Positions 2,038-48,202 of a stretch of DNA of 64,000 nucleotides are shown here, in pieces. The translations under genes and the position numbers were made by a program. Every line of letters begins with the position of its first letter. Within the stretch, counting starts at the first letter, position 1. The notes under the pieces are model-generated. The model was not told where the DNA came from. It saw only the letters and a list, made by a program, of their open reading frames with translations, and did no database searches. The stretch comes from Dictyostelium discoideum (Eukaryota): contig CM000153.2 in NCBI GenBank assembly GCA_000004695.1, forward strand, positions 736,001 to 800,000, given 5' to 3'.

Positions 2038-6939
<4,902 letters not shown>

Positions 6940-6965
6940 TCTATTTCGGCCTAAACAGTGTTTTT

Positions 6966-7008
<43 letters not shown>

Positions 7009-7133
7009 CAATAATTTATAAAAAAAAGCCCGGAATCCCATTTTATTGAGTTGCGAGTGGCGAAAATTAAATTTGATTAGTTTTTATTTTATTTTTATTT
7101 TTATTTTATTTTTTTATTTTTTGATAAAAGAAA

Positions 7134-7246
7134 TTAAATTAATAATAAATCTTCAACTAACTTTCGTATGTAGGATTTATTAGAACCAAGATAGCTATTA
7201 ATTTTTTCACCATTTTTATATGTAACAAAACATGGAACACCTGAAA
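7134..7246 (-). CDS. same gene, exon 3: thioredoxin C-terminus VSGVPCFVTYKNGEKINSYLGSNKSYIRKLVEDLL
   Basis: intron 7247-7337 (GTATAT..ATATTTAG) contains (AAAT)n; the translation aligns to the thioredoxin C-terminus, [32 protein letters not shown] (quoted from memory); total CDS 1191 nt = 397 codons, in frame. Confidence 0.6.
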
Positions 7247-7277
7247 CTAAATATTGAATTAAAAATTGAATTATTAA

Positions 7278-7324
<47 letters not shown>

Positions 7325-7337
7325 ATATTATATATAC

Positions 7338-7454
7338 CATTTTTACAAACTTCTATATTGGGTAATTTGTCTAGGTCAACCTTTATAAACATGATTTGTT
7401 GTTGAGACTCTGCATAGATTTTTAAAACTTTTTCACATTCTTTACATTTATCAC
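7338..7454 (-). CDS. same gene, exon 2: thioredoxin active-site region WCDKCKEC...IMFIKVDLDKLPNIEVCKN
   Basis: 85-nt intron 7455-7539 (GTATGT..TTTTTAG); joining gives W-C-D-K-C (CxxC) in the exact position of WCGPC of thioredoxin. Confidence 0.6.
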
Positions 7455-7490
7455 CTAAAAATTAAATAATTGATTTGGTTAATTTATTTA

Positions 7491-7521
<31 letters not shown>

Positions 7522-7539
7522 GAAAAAAAAAATACATAC

Positions 7540-8418
7540 ACCACAATGTTGATAAAAATACCATTACTAAATTTCTTTTTGAAAATTCATTTTCAAATTC
7601 ATCAATACTTTTTGGTTCTGTATAATTCTTTGAGTTTTTATTATTTAAAAAATCCATTGTAAATTGTGATAACCCAGGTGGAGGTTCTAATTGTGGTCCT
7701 GATAGTTTAACAATATCAGGTATGGTTTGTGGAATAAACATTGGTTTTGAAAAAATTTGATTTATTTTTGTTGTTGGTATTGGTAATTGTTCTTGTTGCT
7801 CTTGTTGTTGTTCTTGTTGAAGTTTTTGTAATTTTAGATTTGCTAAAATTAAATCATTTTCTAATTTTGTAATTTTTAAATCTTTTTCTTTATTTGACTC
7901 AATTAAATTAATTAACATTGATTGTAATAAAACATGTGGACATGTTATTTCATGAATTGATACAATTGATCTAATTGAAGAGAATTTACAATTCACATTT
8001 TCACCTTTACAATTTATTATGATTGATTCACATTGATTTGTAATATGATTATTAATTTCTGTATTTTTAAATAACTTTCCACAACCTAATGAACATAGTT
8101 GAGTTTTACAATCATTTTTTAAATGATAATTAATGAAATTATTACACCTTTTAATTGGTATAATATCATCACATTCATCACAAACAACTAAAATCTCATT
8201 AAATTTACCAATATTAAAATCTTGTGAAATTTCTATTTTATTTACAATTTTTGTGGTTGTTGTTGTTGTTTTTATTTCACACGTTGGACATATATCTCTA
8301 CCATTTAAACATTCCCTACAAAATATTTTACCACATTGTTTCTCCTGTACAGGGTCATTTAAATAATTAGAACAAATTTGACATTTTAATTCATTACCAA
8401 TTTTATTAATTTTAATAA

Positions 8419-8464
<46 letters not shown>

Positions 8465-8500
8465 ATTACTATTCATATTTTTATTATTATTTTTTAACAA
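7540..8500 (-). CDS. RING/TRAF-zinc-finger - thioredoxin fusion protein, exon 1 (RING-like CQIC..CPTC, TRAF-type Zn finger, coiled coil, start of thioredoxin fold ending ..VMVFLSTLW-C)
   Basis: ATG at 8500; Cys patterns CQICSNYLNDPVQEKQCGKIFCRECLNGRDICPTC and CKTQLCSLGCGKLFKNTEINNHITNQC; exon ends TTG TGG T followed by GTATGT donor (7539). Confidence 0.7.
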
Positions 8501-8508
8501 TTGTTTAT

Positions 8509-8539
<31 letters not shown>

Positions 8540-9495
8540 CCTGTTTAGATCATAACATCGTCATAATGGTTTTTTTTTTTTTATTTTTTTTTTTTTTTAA
8601 AAATATCAAAAAAAAATCAAAAATTAAAAAATTAATAAAACCAAAATAAAAAATTAAAAAAAATTAAAAAAAATTAAAAAAATTAAAAAAAAAGTGTAAA
8701 AAAGAAATATATTTTTAAAAATGATTGACTTTTTTTAAAAAAAAAATATGCAAAATGAAAGTTTTAAATATTTATTTCATTTTTATTCTTTTTCTTAAGT
8801 TTTATTTAATTTTTTTTATTTTGTATAAAATTCTTATTATTATTGATTTGATTTTAAAAAAGATAAAAAGTTTATAATTTTTTTTTTTTATTTTGTATAG
8901 AACTCTTATTATTATTGATTGACAATAATATTATAAAAAATAAAAAAAATAAAATAAAAAAATAAAAAAAAAAAAAAAAAAAAAAGAAATTAAGGAATAT
9001 ATATACCCTATCCTCTTTTAAATAATTGCAATCAAATGAAAAAAAAATTAAAATATTGATTAAAAAAAAATTAAAAAAAATGAGATGATTTTCTTGAAAT
9101 TAATTTTCCCAAAAATATGTAATCAAAACAAAACAATAAAATAAATAAGGAATTAATGATAATAAAAATTATAAAATAATAATGGTATATTATAACAAAA
9201 TAGTAATATTTATAATAATTACAAGGATGAAATTTTAGAAATAATTTTTATATTTTTTTGAAATTTAACCCATTTCACACTTGTATAAAAGACACCCCAT
9301 AAAAAAAAAAAAAGAAAAAAAAAAAAAAAACTAAAAATTATAAGAACTTTTGAACAAATATTTTTGTTTTTAAATATCTTTTTTTTTTTTTTTTTTTTTT
9401 TTTTTTCATGAATAATTACCAAAATGTTTTTCAAAAATATCCCGATTTTTAAACCCAGGGTTTTAATTTTCGGTTTTGAATTAATTAACTGACAC

Positions 9496-9535
<40 letters not shown>

Positions 9536-9871
9536 AAAAAAAAAATTAAAAAAAAAATTAAAAAAAAATAATTTTTTAATCTGATTTATTTTTTTTTTAT
9601 GGAGTGTCCAAACCTTACTGATTCACTAAACCGAACCCTATTTACACCTATTTTTTATTAAAAAACAATCGTTAATTTAATATTTATTTTATTTTTATTT
9701 TTTTTCATTTTTTTTTATTTTATTTTAATTTTATTTTATTTTATTTTATTTTATTTTTTTTTTTCTATACAAAAAAAAAAAAAAATTACCTATAAATTTT
9801 TTTAGTATAAATAAAAATAACATTTATATCAATTTTAGTTTAAAGACAATTTTAGATTTGGTGTGGGTTTG

Positions 9872-9905
<34 letters not shown>

Positions 9906-10463
9906 TGTATTCTAATTTTGTGGTTTTTAGTCATCATTTTACTTTAAATATCTTTTTTTTTATTTTATTTTAAAATTCATACACAAACAATAAAATAAAT
10001 AATATTATTTCTTTTTTATTATTATTTTTTTGTTTTTCTAATAGTACAAACCTGTGATACCATTTTAATTTTGTCGTTCAGATTTCACCACAAATAATTA
10101 ATTAATTCACTCTTTGTTTATTATTAAATTAAAATAAAAAAAAAATAAAATAAAAAAAAATAAAAAAAAATAAAAAATAATAAAAATAAAAATAAAAATA
10201 AAAATAAAAAAAAGTAATAATATCTTTAAAAAATATTTATTTATAATTTTTAAAAATATTTATTTTTAATTTTTTTAATTTTTATTTTTAATTTTTATTT
10301 GTTTGAAAGTAAAAAAAAAAATAAAAAGCAAATAAAAAAAAAAAAAAAAAAAAAGAAAGCAAAATTAAAATAATTATTTTAAAAATAAGTTAAGAGTGTA
10401 TAACAACAAAAAAAAAAAAAAAATTAATTCCAGAAAATAAAAAAAATAATAATAATAATTATA

Positions 10464-39652: not shown

Positions 39653-39936
39653 CTTTGGGTTATTATTATTTTAAAATTATTTCTATTTACAATGACATGT
39701 ATGTAAAAGTTTGTTTATTTAATGCATTCTTATACCAATGTAATTGAAAAAACATAAACTATGTAAACTACTACTATTACTATTACTACTGCTCTTTTTT
39801 TTTTTTTTTTTTAAAAATTTTTTTTTTTAATGTTTTTTTTTTTTTCAAAAAAGTAATACTTTTTTTTTTAAGAAAAATATTACACTAAATGGATATATTA
39901 ATTTTTTTTTTTTTTTTTGTATATTATATTATTATT

Positions 39937-40430
39937 TTAATGAATCAATTCCAATTTTCTTTTCTTCAAAAATAAATCATCATTTAGATTTGAAGATGAA
40001 GAAGTTGGACTTGTTAAAGTTGAGGAAGAATTACTATTACTATTACTATTATATAAACTGATTGGAGGTAATAAAATACTTCTTGAACTATTATTTTGAT
40101 TATTATTATTCGTGTTCGTATTATTGCTATTATTATTATTATTATTTTGGTTATTATTTTGATTATTATTATTTTGATTATTATTTTCATTAAAAATGAG
40201 AGGTGGTAAAGATTTTGATTTTTGTTGGCTATTTGGTGATGTTTGTAAAGTATTTGTATTGGTTGATGAAAATGGTGGAGTTCTTGGTGATGTCATTGGT
40301 GAGGTATCTTCTGGTGATGAGCAAAATAATTTTGAAGCATTATGTAAAGAGAGTAAAGCTTGTGTTGCTTGAGTCGAATCAAATGCTGGTACTTGTTGAC
40401 ATTTGCTTGGTGGTGATCCAATTGGAGACA

Positions 40431-40506
<76 letters not shown>

Positions 40507-41013
40507 TGTATTATTATTGTTTGTATTATTATTATTATTATTATTGTTGTTGTTGTTGCTATTATTATTATTATTGCTACTGTTATTATTATTATTATTA
40601 TTAGATAAATGTGAACTATAATTATTATAATGATTATGATTTTCTTGAGTTTGGGATGGTTTTATTGATAAAATTGGTTTATTTATATGTTGACTGCTAT
40701 TAAATTGAGAATTATTATTATTATTATTACTATTTAATTTCAAATTATTGTGATTATAATGATTATTGTGTCCATTTATATTATTACTGTTATTATAGTT
40801 ATTATGGTTATTATTATGATTATTATTATTATTATTACTATTATTATTATATTGATGGTGGTGATGATGATGATTATGGTGATTGTATCCTAATAATTCT
40901 GGTGTCGATGATGGTGATTTATGATCCTCTTCTTCAGAGTGTGATGCTGTATCGCCACCAATATAGTCATCATTAAAGTCACCTTTTTCTTTTTTATTAA
41001 ATATTTTATCATA
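39937..41013 (-). CDS. MEF2-type MADS-box factor exon 2: His/Asn/Ser-rich low-complexity activation region
   Basis: 122-nt intron 41014-41135 (GTATGT...CATATAG); frame open from 41013 to stop at 39937; total 447 codons; the M of ORF 39937-40743 is a TTG inside this exon. Confidence 0.7.
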
Positions 41014-41057
41014 CTATATGGAAAATTAAAAGTTAATTAGTATTCCAAATTATTTTT

Positions 41058-41104
<47 letters not shown>

Positions 41105-41135
41105 TTTTTTTTTAGATTTTTTTTTTTTTACATAC

Positions 41136-41399
41136 GTCATGGTCAGTAAACTTTTGGGAAATTTCTGGACCCAAATCTGGAATTGATTCCATTGGTGATG
41201 GTAAACCAGAACTAATATATTGGAAATATTTCTCTTTGGCATTTGGTGAATTATTTACAATGACAAGAGAAACTGTAGAGTCACAGAGTAATGCCAATTC
41301 CATTGCCTTTTTAATTAAGCCATTCTTTCTTTTGTTGAATGTAACTTGACGATTTCTTTCGTCTGGAATTCTTTGGATCTTAATTTTCTTTCTACCCAT
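41136..41399 (-). CDS. MEF2-type MADS-box transcription factor exon 1 (MADS box + MEF2 domain)
   Basis: [57 protein letters not shown] is near-identical to metazoan MEF2 MADS/MEF2 domains; exon ends GAC CAT GAC + GTATGT donor (41135-41130). Confidence 0.85.
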
Positions 41400-41592
41400 T
41401 TTAATTTATTAATTGTTTTGATTATTTGGTTGATTGATTTGATTTGATTGATATATGGAAAAAAAGTGTGAATAAATAAATAAAATATTATTTCACTATT
41501 ATTATTATTTGTAGATGATTAGTAAATTTTTTATTTAAATTATATATAAAATAAATGAATAAATAAAAAATTAAAAAATTAAAAAAAAACCC

Positions 41593-41623
<31 letters not shown>

Positions 41624-41712
41624 AGTTAAAATTAAAATTAAAATTAAAAAAAACAATTTTTTAAAAGTTTTAATTAAAAAAATTTAAAAAAAAATTTTTT
41701 TTTTAAAATGGG

Positions 41713-41745
<33 letters not shown>

Positions 41746-42732
41746 TGAAGTGGCAAAGGAAAAAAAAATGAAAAAAAAATGAAAAAAAAAATAAAAAAAA
41801 TAAAAAAAAAGATAAATTTGGAAATCAGACAAGATTGTAAATAAAGAGGATGTGTGGTGTGTGTGTGTGTTTGTGTTTTTAAAGGGAGGCTTAATATAAT
41901 AATTACCTTTTTTTAAAATAAAGATGAAAATGAAATTTCTATAGTTGGTTCAAATGTTGTCTTTACTGGAATTAAATTAATCTACTAATTAAATATAGAT
42001 TTTACTATTATTAATTTTTTTTTTTTTTTAAAAATTTTTTTTTTTTTTTTTTTTTAAGATTTAAAATTAAAAAAAAAAAAATAAATAAAATTTTAAAGAA
42101 AAAAAAAAATAAATGTTAAATTTGTACAAAGATACTAAAAAATTTAAAAGAATTAAATATAATTAATTAATAAATAAATAATTATTTAATTGAAAAAAAA
42201 TAAAAAAAAACAAAAAAAGATAAAATTTAAAAATATATTTGTGTTTTGAAAAAAAAAAAAAAAAATAAAAAAAGAAAAAAATTTTATTTTATTTAGAAAA
42301 CAAAAATAACAAAAATAGAAAATGCCTTGAAATTAAATTTTTTTTTTTATAAAAAAAAATAAAAATAAAAAAAAAAAAAATAAAAAAAAAATAAAAAAAA
42401 TAAAAAATCCAATTTGATAAAAATCGCGACATCCTTATTATTTAGAAGGTCTACTGTTTTTTTTTTTTATGAAGATTATGTGGCCAGGAATTTTAAAAAT
42501 TGGTTTATTTTGGGAACTGTTTTGATAACATTATGATGTGCTGGTGGTGAATTTTTTTTTTATTTTTTTTTTTTTTTGTTTTGCCTGTACATTTTCTATA
42601 AATAAACCAAAAAAAAAAAAAAATAAAATAAAATAAAAAAAATAAAATTTTTAACTTAAACAGAAAAAAAATTAAAAAAAAAAAAAAAAAAGTTATGATT
42701 TATGTGTTACAATTATTTTTTGCAAAAATTTA

Positions 42733-42764
<32 letters not shown>

Positions 42765-43197
42765 GTTTATAAAAAATAATTATTGTAATTGTTATATTAT
42801 TGGAAAAAAAAAAAAATAATAAAAAAAATAAAAATATAAAAACCAAAAAAAAAAAAAAAAAAATAAAAATCCAATTTTTTTAAAAAAGCAACGTTGGGGA
42901 TAATTTTAAATAAGGTTGTAACAAAAATATTTAGAGTCTTTTCATCACATTTGTGGTGGGTTACAAGTGATATAAATAAACAAATAACGAAGGATTTTTT
43001 TTTTTTTAAAAAAAAAAAAAGTTATATAAATAAAAAAATATGGTTATATGTTTAAAAAAAAAAAAAAAAAAAAAAAAATTTAAAAAAAATAAAAATACTT
43101 TTTTTTTTATTTTGACTGTTTTTTGATTTTGATTTAGGGATATTTTTTGGGAAAATGTTCGGAAACAAAATTTATAAATAGTTTTTGGGTGAGAGAG

Positions 43198-43230
<33 letters not shown>

Positions 43231-43279
43231 TTAAAATAAAAAAAAATGGTTTTTAAAAAAAAAAAATTTTTTTTTAAAC

Positions 43280-43331
<52 letters not shown>

Positions 43332-46300
43332 TTAGTTTATGAAAATAAAAAATAAAAAATAAATGAAATTTAAAAAAAAAAAAAAAACCAGCAACAAATT
43401 AAATTTTCATATTAAAGTACGCTGTAGAAGATATGTTGTTAAAGGCTGTGGGCGTTCTTTTTTTTTTTTTTTTTTTTTTTTATTTTTAATCTATTTGATT
43501 ATGCACAGGGTAAAAAGGTATGAAGATTAAAAGAAAAAAAAAAAAAAAAAAAAAAATTAAAAATAAAAATAAAAACACTCAACAAAAAAAAATCCAAAAA
43601 ACACAAATTTATTTTTATACACAGAGTACTGATAAAGTTTGGAAAAAAAAAAAAAAAAAAAATATTTTTTGCCAGTAAAATTTAAAAAAAGTTGTTTTTT
43701 GATGGTGAATTAAATTGTCATATGATTGTAAGGGTTGACACCATAATTTAATATTAAAAATAGATTTGTACCAGATTTATGTGAAAATTAAAAATCAAAA
43801 ATAAAAAAAAAAATAAAAAAAAATAAAAATAAAAATTCTATAATTATTTTTTTTTTTTTTTTTTTGATATTTTGAAATGGGGAAAATGGTGCGGTAAAGG
43901 TGTGATGTTATAGTAAAATTCGAGAGTGTGTTCTTATTTTTTTTTATTTTTTTTTTTTTTTGTATAACGACAAGTATAAAGGTTACAACAAAAATTTAAA
44001 AATAATTTTTTTTTTTGAAAATTTAAAAATAAATTATTTTTTTTAATGAAAAATGGCGAATCAATTTCGCAACATTGCGAACTGTTGGGACACCCAAAAA
44101 TTACTCTTTTTTTTTATTTTTTTTTTTTTATTTTTTATAAATATAGAAATTATGGTATTATCTTTTTTTTTTTTTTTTATTTCTTCTTACCTCTTTTTTT
44201 TATTTTTTTATTTTTTTTTTTAAAAAAAATTAATTTATTGAGTAAAATATTTTTTTTATTTTTTTTTTTATTATTGGAATATTTTGGCTTTTATAAAAAT
44301 TATTTTTAAAATAAATTTTTTTTTTTTTTTTTTTAAATTTAACAAAATAATAAAATTAAAATATATATTTTAATAAATTTTTTAATTTTATTTATTTAAA
44401 AAAGTAATTTTTTTTTCTTTTTGGGTTATTAAATAAAAAAATAAAATAAAAATTTTTTATTTATATATATATTTATATATATAAGTATAAATATAAATAA
44501 GTTTTTTTAATTTTTTTTTAATTTTTTTTATTAATTAAATTTAAAATATTTTTGTTTTATATAATTATTATTTAGTTCGAATATTGACAATAATAAATAA
44601 CACGAAGATTCGATTAGAGATATAATTGTGTAGTGAGTTTGTATGGGTTGAAATTTTATTGCTTGGAATTTGAAAAAGAACAATTAAAACACATAATGGT
44701 GCAATTATTATTATTTTTTCATTTTATTGAAAAAAAAAAATAAAAAAAAAAAACAATGTGAATAAATAATAAAAGTGTTTTTAAAATAGATTATTATATT
44801 TTTTTTTTTTTTTTATAAAATTTTAAAATATGATAAAAAAAATAAAATCATCATTTCTATTGTTATTTATTTTTTTTTTTTAAAAAAAAAATAGATTAAA
44901 AGGGGTGTGGGAATTGGGGTTTATTTATTTTTTTTTATTTTTTTTATTTTTATAATTATTATTATTTTTAAAAAATGTGGTTTTCCATTGTAATAATTAC
45001 TATTTTTTAAAAATAATGTAATGATAGCGATAAAATAAATAAAAAAATAAATAAATAGATTAAAAATAATAAAAATAAAACTAATAAATAATTTTTAAAA
45101 TTTTTTTTTAAAAAAAATAAAATAAAATAAAATAACTTGAATATGAAAAAACAATAAAAATAAAAATAATACTAATACTAATATTAATTAATTTTCCAAG
45201 GACGAATTAATTAAAAAAACAAAAAAAAAAAAAGTGTTGTTTTTTTTATATTACCTTTTTTTTTTAATATTTTTATTAAAATAAATTATTAAATCTATTT
45301 ATAAAAATATTTGTATTGGTTACTAGCAATGAGATTTGATTAAATATTAATTTCGATTTTTTAATTTTATTATAATTAAATTTATTTATTAATTTATTAT
45401 TATTATTATTATTATTATTCAAAAATGAAATATAATTTTTTAAAAAAAAAAAAAAAAAAATTAAAAGTTTATTTTTTTTTTTTTTTAATTAATGATTTTA
45501 TTTTTAAATTTTTTAAATTTTTTATTTTTTTTAAAATTAGATTTATTTATATTTTTAATAATTAAAAAAAAAAAAAAAAAAGAAGATGGTATTTGTTCTT
45601 TTTTTTTTTTTATTGAAAAAGAGAAAAAAAAAAAAAACAAAAATTTAAATTTATACGGATTTAAAAATAATATTTTAATAAAAAAAAAAAAAAAATTTAT
45701 TTTTATTTTTAATTATTGTGTTATTATGATGAATCTAGGTGTTTTGATGATTGCTCTAAAAAAAAAAAAAAAAAAATATTTATTTATTTTTTATTTTTTT
45801 TTATTTTTTTTTTTGTAACTTTTGATTTTGGAGAGAGAGTCTTTTAAGTTAGAGCGGTGTTATACTGTCATTTGTTGATAGGGGACCTCGCGAAACCTTC
45901 TAAAAAAAAAAAAATTGTTGTGAGTATTGTTTTTGTCACCCAATAGATTAAATGATCCATAATGGGAATTGATAATGAATGATGTTGTGTGAGCTTGTCA
46001 AAAATAAAATTATTTTAATTTATAAAAATAAAAATAAAAATAAAAAAAAAATACTTTTCGAACGAATGTTGTCATTTTTCGAATTTAAATAAAAATTATG
46101 CCAATAATTTTTAAAAAGGAAATTAGGTTTTCCTTTTTTAGACTCTTGATTTTTTATTTTATTTTTATTTATTTTTTTTTACCCATTACATTATACCAAA
46201 ATTTCTTTTTGATGATATCATTTTTTTTTAAATTTATTTATTAAATTAATTTTATTTAATATTATTTTAAATTTTTTTTTTTTATTTTTTTTTTTTCAAA

Positions 46301-46510
46301 CTCAATTACTTAATCATTCAATTTAATTATAATGATTTTTGGAATCCAATTCCTTTAATAGGTATCAATTATTATTAAATTAACCAACAAAATAATATAA
46401 AATTAAATTAAAAAAGGTACTAGAACCACAATTCTTTTTTTTTTTTTATTTTCATTTTTTTTTTTTATTTTGGGACATGTTAAAATAAAATAAAAAAAAA
46501 TTTGAAAAAA

Positions 46511-46541
<31 letters not shown>

Positions 46542-47152
46542 CCGTTAGGGGAATGTTCTTGATGTCTTTTTAGCGTTATAATTATTTAAAAAATAAATAA
46601 TTTAAAATAAAAAAAAAAATAAAAAAAAAAATAAAAAAAATAAAATATCATCTATTTAAATATAATTCCGCAAAAATTACATTACACGATCTATAGATTG
46701 TTTTTTTAAATTTTTGTACAACCATAATCATAATGTCTATTTTTATATAGAATTGAAGTAAAAATGATGATTTTTTTTTTTTTTTTTTTGTTAATTCTTT
46801 AATCAGTTTTTTTTATTATTAGAATTTAATTTAAAAGTATTAATATTTTTTTTTTTCTTTATTATTATTGATTTTTTCTAATATTTTTATTTTTACCTTT
46901 TTTATAATGATTTTTGATTTTTCTATTATTGTTGTTATTTTTTTTTTTTTAATTATTTTTAAAAATAAAAATAGGATTTCTTAAAAAAATAATCTTTTTT
47001 TTTTTTTTTTTGCATTTTTTCCTCTTATTTTAATTAATTTCATTTTCATTTTATTAAAAAAAATTAATAATTTTATTTTTATTATTTTATTATTATTTTA
47101 TTTTTATTTATAATTTTTTTTTTGCATTTTTTCCTCTTATTTTAATTAATTT

Positions 47153-47196
<44 letters not shown>

Positions 47197-47266
47197 GCAT
47201 TTATGAAAAAAAAAAGCGACCCATACAAAAATACACATACACACACAATAAAATAAATATATAAAT
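41400..47266. promoter_or_regulatory. 5.9-kb region devoid of ORFs upstream of the MADS-box gene: candidate complex/multi-promoter regulatory region (may contain non-coding 5' exons or small ncRNA genes)
   Basis: no ORF >110 codons on either strand, dominated by poly(A)/poly(T) tracts with scattered short GC-richer islands (e.g. 42420-42560, 42890-42990, 43420-43520, 43690-43790, 43870-43960, 44050-44100, 44570-44700, 45820-46000, 46540-46740); intergenic spacers elsewhere in the window are 0.1-2 kb. Confidence 0.3.
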
Positions 47267-47614
47267 ATGAAAAAAGATAAAAAAGAAACTAGTAGTAATA
47301 GTAAGAAAGTTGATAGAGTTGCATTTGATGAAGAAGAGATTAGACAAGAGATTGTTAGTATTTTAGATTCAACAGCAATAGAAGTTCACAAAGATTGGCA
47401 AAAGAAATTGGATTATCAAAGATTTAAAAAAGAATATGAAACAGTTGTGGACGATTTACCAAATGTTATAAATATATTTATTAAACTGGAAGAAATTTGG
47501 AACATAAATAAATTTTTAGAAAATCCAACTCATTTCATTAACCTCTTTCAAATTATGTCTTATAGAATAGAACATACAATTATAACTTATGATGTAGAAG
47601 AATTAAAAACAATT
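47267..47614 (+). CDS. hypothetical helical protein exon 1
   Basis: ATG 47267, non-repetitive, acidic/helical; proposed donor ACA ATT + GTAATA at 47615. Confidence 0.55.
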
Positions 47615-47636
47615 GTAATATTAAATATAAATTTAT

Positions 47637-47637
<1 letters not shown>

Positions 47638-47689
<52 letters not shown>

Positions 47690-47690
47690 G
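47638..47690. repeat. (CAT)18 microsatellite
   Basis: perfect run; reads as His18 in ORF 47267-47854 frame but probably intronic. Confidence 0.85.
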
Positions 47691-47726
47691 TATTTATTAA
47701 CTTTCTAACCATACATTCATATATAG

Positions 47727-47951
47727 CATCATGTAAATATGTTTTTAATAGGGACTTTATTGAAATTAATTTGTCAAATTTCGGTACTAGTTGCATATTT
47801 AGATATTACTCAACCAAAATACGAAGAAAACAGTCATACAAAACAATTAATTAGAGTTTTAGTTGAAGGTTTTATGAAATTTGTAAAAAGTTTAACAATC
47901 CAATATAGATCGATTCAATTTCATGATACACATATAATTGCACCACAAAAA
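47727..47951 (+). CDS. hypothetical protein exon 2 (proposed)
   Basis: acceptor CATATATAG (AG 47725-47726); frame of ORF 47739-47978; (CAT)18 run 47638-47690 then falls in the 112-nt intron rather than encoding His18; donor AAA + GTAAAT at 47952. Confidence 0.4.
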
Positions 47952-48028
47952 GTAAATATATTTATTAAACGACAATAATTAAAATTAATATGTAATACTA
48001 ATACCATAAATAATCATTAATACTATAG

Positions 48029-48202
48029 TTAAAAAAGTATCCAATGGTAGAAGATATTAAAACATTATCAGATTCTTATATTCATTCAAATGTATTTGCA
48101 TCCCTATCGGCGATAAAAGAAATTAAACATATTTTATATTGTTTTTATAATTTTTTAAGAATTAATAAAGATAACTGGAAAGAAGTCCATGATTCTCTAT
48201 AA
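48029..48202 (+). CDS. hypothetical protein exon 3 (proposed)
   Basis: acceptor TACTATAG (AG 48027-48028); 57 stop-free codons LKKYPMVEDIKTLSDSYIHSNVFASLSAIKEIKHILYCFYNFLRINKDNWKEVHDSL*. Confidence 0.35.
   Translation, partial: LKKYPMVEDIKTLSDSYIHSNVFASLSAIKEIKHILYCFYNFLRINKDNWKEVHDSL

Follow-up and report, generated by a model that had tools for sequence, protein, structure and literature searches.

Dictyostelium discoideum keeps, immediately upstream of the MADS-box gene srfD, an unusually long stretch of DNA that lacks genes but is densely populated by conserved non-coding elements. The window analysed here is a 64,000-nucleotide stretch (GenBank assembly GCA_000004695.1, contig CM000153.2, positions 736,001–800,000, forward strand), which we take to be part of D. 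discoideum AX4 chromosome 4; two of its open reading frames (ORFs) are identical to the AX4 proteins DDB_G0283473 (trehalase) and DDB_G0283477. The gene-free region occupies positions 41400–47266 of this window (5,867 bp, 13.3% G+C) and separates srfD, on the minus strand, from a divergent neighbour of 248 amino acids on the plus strand. This region is most likely, with a probability of roughly 0.65, a compound cis-regulatory region of srfD that would contain several promoters and non-coding 5' exons. This reading draws on cross-species conservation, strand composition and the placement of splice-like and promoter-like signals.

Intergenic regions in D. discoideum are usually shorter than 1 kb, and this one is the longest stretch of the window without an open frame of at least 100 codons. 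It consists of 4.5 kb and 1.4 kb split only by a low-complexity run of F, K, L and I codons at 45492–45818, the sole frame of that length within it; the next-longest stretches in the window are 2.2, 1.9 and 1.7 kb. The initial annotation had described a 5.9-kb desert without a supportable ORF in a window where other spacers reach about 2 kb at most. The desert is borne out, with the low-complexity frame as its only long ORF and no gene in the annotations of four assemblies, and the figure for other spacers is about right. The short GC-richer islands that it pointed out are also real: their G+C fraction is 0.16–0.32 in 200-bp intervals compared to 0.04–0.10 in their surroundings, and each overlaps, fully or partly, a block conserved in four species.

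Orthologous loci of 21 kb each were located in D. citrinum, D. dimigraforme, D. firmibasis and a second D. discoideum assembly by means of the neighbour protein, since a protein search with full-length SrfD matched distant orthologues only. The order of srfD (minus), gap and neighbour (plus) is the same in all four loci, and none of the four assemblies has a gene annotated in the gap, which measures 5,826, 5,901, 5,890 and 6,046 bp. Between the two D. discoideum assemblies, 1.4% of gap positions are different (4175–10000 of the second-assembly locus against 41400–47266), nearly always in homopolymer runs, where some differences may be assembly or sequencing artefacts rather than polymorphisms. 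Across species the gap is collinear end to end at 69–73% identity in gapped blastn, compared to about 56% for off-diagonal A/T-rich matches, and identity over positions aligned by MAFFT is 74–79%. Within the four-species MAFFT alignment this conservation is concentrated in 26 blocks of 19–101 bp, 1,108 bp in total or 19% of the region, which are 86–100% identical in the four species, with A/T runs rich in insertions and deletions (indels) between them. For comparison, four-way identity is 87.5% in the MADS-box exon 1 of srfD (66% at third codon positions) and 58% in exon 1 of the neighbour gene. The conservation across Dictyostelium species that the initial annotation proposed to look for is thus present.

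The region also exceeds its controls, a set of only four intergenic regions from the same loci: 48% of its G/C positions are conserved compared to 0–29% in the controls, and it has 4.5 blocks per kb compared to 0–2.2. AX4 and the second D. discoideum assembly differ in the region by 46 substitutions and 41 indel columns, all of them outside the blocks, where an even spread would place about 16 inside, an expectation limited by the clustering of the differences in homopolymers. Conservation above the controls, together with the lack of differences inside blocks between the two assemblies, indicates that the blocks are under purifying selection. Being conserved above controls, collinear and devoid of coding potential, the region is a cluster of conserved non-coding elements; a literature search for such elements in Dictyostelium found nothing relevant. 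The initial annotation had suggested a complex regulatory region, and conservation supports the part of that suggestion that concerns functional non-coding DNA tied to the MADS-box gene, but not its option of small non-coding RNAs, which is weighed below.

The gene at 39937–41399 encodes 446 amino acids, in agreement with the 446-amino-acid gene annotated in the second D. discoideum assembly. Exon 1 (41399–41136) ends ...TDHD|GTATGT, the intron (41135–41014) runs from GTATGT to TATAG, and exon 2 covers 41013–39937. The product contains a MADS box (Pfam SRF-TF, E 7e-19) that is of the MEF2 type as judged from solved structures, since the best matches are to MEF2D, MEF2A, MEF2B and MEF2C (E about 4e-19) and are stronger than those to SRF and MCM1 (about 1e-6 to 1e-7). 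D. discoideum has four MADS-box genes, among them mef2A (DDB_G0268920) and srfD (DDB_G0283483). The gene at 41399 is srfD: DDB_G0283483 fits a locus that holds DDB_G0283473 and DDB_G0283477. The identity mef2A was considered and is ruled out by its gene identifier and by its structure, with 2.2 kb upstream and an intron inside the ATG, compared to the uninterrupted ATG at 41399 here. Expression of srfD has been reported to be prestalk- and stalk-specific across species; in a literature search it was the sole D. discoideum MADS-box gene for which no functional study was found, and a search by gene identifier returned nothing.

More distant dictyostelids help to assign the region to one of its two flanking genes. 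Orthologues of srfD in Polysphondylium violaceum, Tieghemostelium lacteum and Heterostelium album, recognized by the MADS box and a ...FDS..ATQALLSL motif (two of the three also carry a C-terminal LKKRK), are preceded by gaps of 4.6 kb, 2.8 kb and up to 7.5 kb, respectively. Each of these exceeds every other gap in its 21-kb locus and lies beside unrelated genes; the large gap tracks srfD and not its neighbours. Strand composition carries a similar signal. On the plus strand of 41400–46050 (4.65 kb) there are 427 G and 195 C, a skew of +0.37, which reverses in the 1.2 kb adjoining the neighbour gene. This polarity recurs in every orthologous gap, including those of distant species without sequence similarity; in regions between two plus-strand genes, too, the strand that is sense for the downstream gene has more C than G, with a weaker lean in D. 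discoideum. From the switch in skew at about 46050, some 4.65 kb appears to belong to srfD and some 1.2 kb to the neighbour. Two observations concern the distant orthologues themselves. Positions 5457–8287 of the H. album locus, inside the 7.5-kb upstream gap and on the strand of the srfD orthologue, carry an annotated "gene" of 48 amino acids spread over 2.8 kb; this model may in fact stand for a 5' transcript that is spliced and non-coding. Three environmental JGI contigs (3300028164, 3300028107 and 3300028160) contain a P. violaceum-like srfD orthologue, preceded by 0.5–1.0 kb that aligns collinearly to the P. violaceum genome with partial conservation (74–93%). The 3' ends of these contigs, which may be DNA or RNA, agree within 17 nt, and no splicing is seen in them relative to P. 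violaceum genomic DNA.

Conserved signals facing srfD suggest how the region might be used. A putative 3' splice site of an intron in the 5' untranslated region (5'UTR) lies at 41496–41524 on the minus strand, where a branch-like TACTAAT (41524–41518), within block 41506–41524 and fully conserved in the four-species alignment, is followed some 20 nt on by a conserved AG with its G at 41496. A common exon would then begin at 41495, 96 nt before the srfD ATG. Three isolated conserved motifs of the form (A)nG|GTAA(T/G) occur in the srfD sense, at 41906, 44190 and 45254. The nearest terminates a candidate proximal non-coding exon (41905–41988, minus strand), in which a 76-bp block (41913–41988) ends AAAAAAAG|GTAATT; with the intron starting at 41906, this donor would give a 411-nt intron reaching to 41496. 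The second is a conserved GAG|GTAAG (44186–44193, minus strand), isolated in a variable T-run, which would place the intron start at 44190; some 100 nt upstream of this motif in the srfD sense is TATAAAAG (about 44283–44290). The third closes a promoter-like unit at 45250–45350 on the minus strand, which comprises block 45326–45350, a conserved CCAAT that reads TATTGGTT on the plus strand, TATAAATA (45303–45296), an A-run and AAAAG|GTAATA; here, too, the motif is isolated in a variable T-run, and the intron would start at 45254.

Promoter-like units accompany these sites. The sequence TATAAA(A/T)A with a downstream oligo-dT tract is the canonical core-promoter arrangement of Dictyostelium, and in the srfD sense it is common to all four species at 43619 and 45655 and partly conserved at 42351 and 45303. 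At the first of these positions, block 43605–43646, conserved in the four species, reads TATAAAAATA (43619–43610) followed by a T-run, and another conserved block (43498–43533) is located just downstream of this TATA/T-run in the srfD sense. At 45576–45655 on the minus strand, TATAAATT (45655–45648) precedes T14 and block 45576–45595. The presence and conservation of these motifs are observed, and their use, and the gene that they serve, are inferred. They suggest promoters at roughly −0.6 to −1, −2.2, −2.9, −3.9 and −4.25 kb.

Taken as a working model, about 41400–46100 would be the cis-regulatory domain of srfD, in which the 26 G/C-containing blocks would act as short transcription-factor-binding or core-promoter modules spaced by freely evolving A/T runs. 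Several modules would probably be alternative promoters, each giving a short A-rich non-coding first exon, with 41906, 44190 and 45254 as candidate donors and about 43619, 45303 and 45655 as candidate TATA/oligo-dT units. The first exons would be spliced to the common acceptor (intron end 41496), 96 nt 5' of the ATG, and the remaining 46100–47266 (about 1.2 kb) would be an ordinary promoter of the plus-strand neighbour.

Such an organization has precedents among the MADS-box genes of this organism. The initial annotation had invoked alternative promoters in MADS-box genes of social amoebae, and the three characterised D. discoideum genes do use them (PMC3819988, PMC3640940). In srfB, where promoter function extends over the whole intergenic region, there are three transcription start regions (−1791/−1783, −817 and −612/−617) and a non-coding first exon; its 5'UTR introns, which measure 1,066 and 1,509 bp, have been called unusually large compared to a mean intron of 146 bp (PMC3819988). 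Several promoters are also cited for srfA (in PMC3819988), and mef2A (srfC) has two alternative promoters with distinct cell-type patterns in 2.2 kb and a 5'UTR intron, while a second intron splits its ATG (PMC3640940). The srfD region resembles that of srfB in lying 5' of a MADS-box gene for a developmental transcription factor, but its candidate elements reach −4.8 kb, whereas the most distal srfB start is at −1.8 kb, and its predicted introns would measure 0.4, 2.7 and 3.8 kb. Like mef2A, srfD is a MEF2-type gene; its ATG is uninterrupted and 5.9 kb lie upstream, compared to the split ATG of mef2A and the 2.2 kb that separate mef2A from its upstream gene. The srfD region, so far uncharacterised, appears to fit the srfA/srfB/mef2A pattern but would reach much further from the ATG. 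The developmental gene acaA of D. discoideum, which does not encode a transcription factor, reportedly has a three-promoter region as well. Developmental transcription factor genes of animals and plants have comparable surroundings, known as "gene deserts" or genomic regulatory blocks, in which conserved non-coding elements are clustered. The srfD region is similar to these in having many short blocks conserved as strongly as coding sequence, collinear, in a gene-poor interval, but it spans kilobases rather than hundreds of kilobases, and its conservation is seen in four close group-4 species only.

Several observations weigh against a compound promoter region of srfD. TATA-like words, T-runs and GTAA arise by chance in DNA with 87% A+T, the control set is small, and the candidate introns of 2.7–3.8 kb exceed the 1.5 kb that was already remarkable in srfB. 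Upstream of srfD in P. violaceum, T. lacteum and H. album none of the blocks is recognizable, and blastn against these gaps gives low-complexity matches only. Some signals also face away from srfD. On the plus strand, TATAAATA at 42971–42978 is followed by T13 (42995–43007), a combination common to two of the three other species by the scan criteria; block 43498–43533 contains the donor-like sites CAGG|GTAAAA (43510) and AAAG|GTATGA (43518), and block 43605–43646 contains an acceptor-like TTTATACACAG|AG that ends at 43624, with an exon start at 43625. These plus-strand signals, along with the excess of G over C on that strand throughout 4.65 kb, would suit one or more independent long non-coding RNAs, for example a transcript leaving srfD on the plus strand, of which the blocks would be exons or splice sites rather than srfD promoters. 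The donor-like and acceptor-like sites would enclose about 105–115 nt with conserved ends and a middle of variable length. Yet the same two blocks fit a srfD-sense promoter of TATAAAAATA and T-run equally well, no further plus-strand splice-like pair was found, and short conserved blocks with unconstrained spacers are typical of protein-binding sites, and we regard this explanation as unlikely. That the region mainly controls the plus-strand neighbour, or separates the two genes as a boundary or insulator, is more improbable still. It is common to two divergent genes and its distal block cluster (45883–46221) is nearer to the neighbour (1.0–1.4 kb) than to srfD, but the neighbour is fast-evolving and without a recognisable domain, the 1.2 kb adjoining it has one small block, the splice-like signals face srfD, and srfD orthologues keep a large gap beside unrelated neighbours in other dictyostelids.

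Small structured non-coding RNA genes, such as class I RNAs, small nucleolar RNAs or microRNA precursors, were an option of the initial annotation for the GC-richer islands, which are indeed short and highly conserved. The searches that it proposed with Rfam, the class I motif and the DUSE element were carried out over the region and were all negative. Scanned over the whole window, Rfam families gave nothing that passed the gathering thresholds; a relaxed cut-off of E up to 10 for the region brought up chance matches in A/T runs only. DUSE ([AT]CCCA[CT]AA) is absent from 41400–47266, and the 11-nt motif of class I RNAs, CCTTACAGCAA, has no match in the region with up to two mismatches. ARAGORN found no tRNA, and none of 15 islands has a stable fold on either strand, with folding z-scores of −1.7 to +1.5 relative to shuffled sequence. 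UGAUGA words that resemble a C box are present at 45725, 45745 and 46211, but no D box (CUGA) in the right position was found by eye. Small RNA genes are consequently a very improbable account of the islands. Hardly credible are missed protein or micropeptide genes, or a neutral spacer or transposon debris. Short ORFs of 28–108 amino acids do exist in the region, but they are of low complexity, indels of 1–5 bp and stop codons break every frame in the inspected blocks, and the four annotations contain no gene. None of 10 ORFs tested occurs in a collection of 15 billion proteins, from which the srfD exon-1 ORF is likewise absent. Across the inspected blocks, the ORF look-up and the four annotations, no reading frame is preserved between species. 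The conservation of the blocks and their freedom from polymorphism exclude a neutral spacer, and repeats in the region are A/T low complexity only, with no transposon-like structure. A bolder version of the preferred srfD cis-regulatory reading, which we consider doubtful, is that of an amoebozoan equivalent of the developmental "regulatory desert" of animals or plants: a dense array of strongly constrained elements over about 5 kb, through which transcription from distal promoters would run, with 5'UTR introns of 2.7–3.8 kb that would be a record for this species, and/or which would give rise to a conserved spliced non-coding RNA; an excess of C over G on the sense strand is kept across Dictyostelia even where the sequence has diverged.

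The remaining blocks lie between 41802 and 46586. Nearest to srfD is a 24-bp block (41802–41825, 96% identical in the four species), followed by a (TG)n microsatellite at 41851–41876, (CA)n in the srfD sense, that keeps its position in the four species while varying in length. This repeat falls just inside the putative proximal 5'UTR intron and resembles the CA-rich elements to which GBF binds. Further upstream are a 39-bp block at 42299–42337 (92%), an 86-bp block at 42461–42546 with 25 conserved G/C positions (within the GC-richer island 42420–42560), and two blocks at 42884–42906 and 42943–42978 (island 42890–42990) that include the G-rich TTTGTGGTGGGTTAC. Island 43420–43520 overlaps a conserved block at its 3' end only. 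The largest block, of 101 bp, lies at 43693–43793 (91%; island 43690–43790), and cannot be coding, given an indel of 5 bp and stop codons in every frame. Island 43870–43960 corresponds to three blocks (43860–43884, 43913–43938 and 43950–43998). A 56-bp block at 44050–44105 contains the palindrome reported by the initial annotation, which is present as an inverted repeat (44066–44081) but is imperfect: its 7-nt arms TTCGCAA and TTGCGAA are separated by a spacer of 2 nt in D. discoideum and 3 nt in the other three species. Blocks 44564–44646 (83 bp, 93%) and 44659–44688 match island 44570–44700, and a 1-bp indel excludes coding there; beyond them are blocks at 44838–44866 (29 bp, 100%), 45008–45034 (27 bp, 96%) and 45709–45764 (56 bp).

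A distal cluster at 45883–46085 consists of blocks 45883–45902 (CCTCGCGAAACC), 45918–46004 (87 bp) and 46044–46085 (with TTCGAA twice); it overlaps island 45820–46000 and is located where the G/C skew changes sign. Block 46193–46221 contains the near-palindrome GATGATATCAT, and block 46565–46586 is the only one in the 1.2 kb adjoining the neighbour gene. Oriented words of 8–11 nt recur among the blocks: TTTTGATG three times (43697, 45742 and 46207) and, twice each, TATGAAGATTA (42468 and 43519), AATGTTGTC (41953 and 46065), GGTTACAA (42959 and 43981) and GAACTGTT (42514 and 44080). These repeated words are candidates for shared transcription-factor binding sites.

Further features flank the gene-free region. 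A 122-bp block at 39675–39796 (minus strand), 95% identical in the four species and 140–260 bp 3' of the srfD stop codon, is probably a 3'UTR element of srfD and hints at post-transcriptional control. On the other side, the divergent neighbour (47267–48202, plus strand) has three exons, encodes about 248–254 amino acids without a Pfam domain and evolves fast, with 59–75% amino acid identity in other species. Its length is 248 amino acids in our model and 254 in the second D. discoideum annotation, and one splice site may differ. A (CAT)n run at 47639–47689, which reads as poly-His in the raw ORF, falls in its intron 1 (GTAATA...TATATAG) and is non-coding when spliced. The promoter of this gene contains an exact 33-bp direct repeat, TTGCATTTTTTCCTCTTATTTTAATTAATTTCA, at 47010–47042 and 47122–47154, with copies 112 bp apart.

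Reporter dissection and CRISPR deletions of the srfD upstream region can draw on this map, which places 26 constrained elements together with candidate promoters and splice sites. Newly available genomes of close Dictyostelium relatives enable phylogenetic footprinting in an extremely A/T-rich genome in which regulatory DNA has been difficult to locate. More broadly, developmental transcription factor genes in Dictyostelium may have unusually large and strongly constrained control regions.

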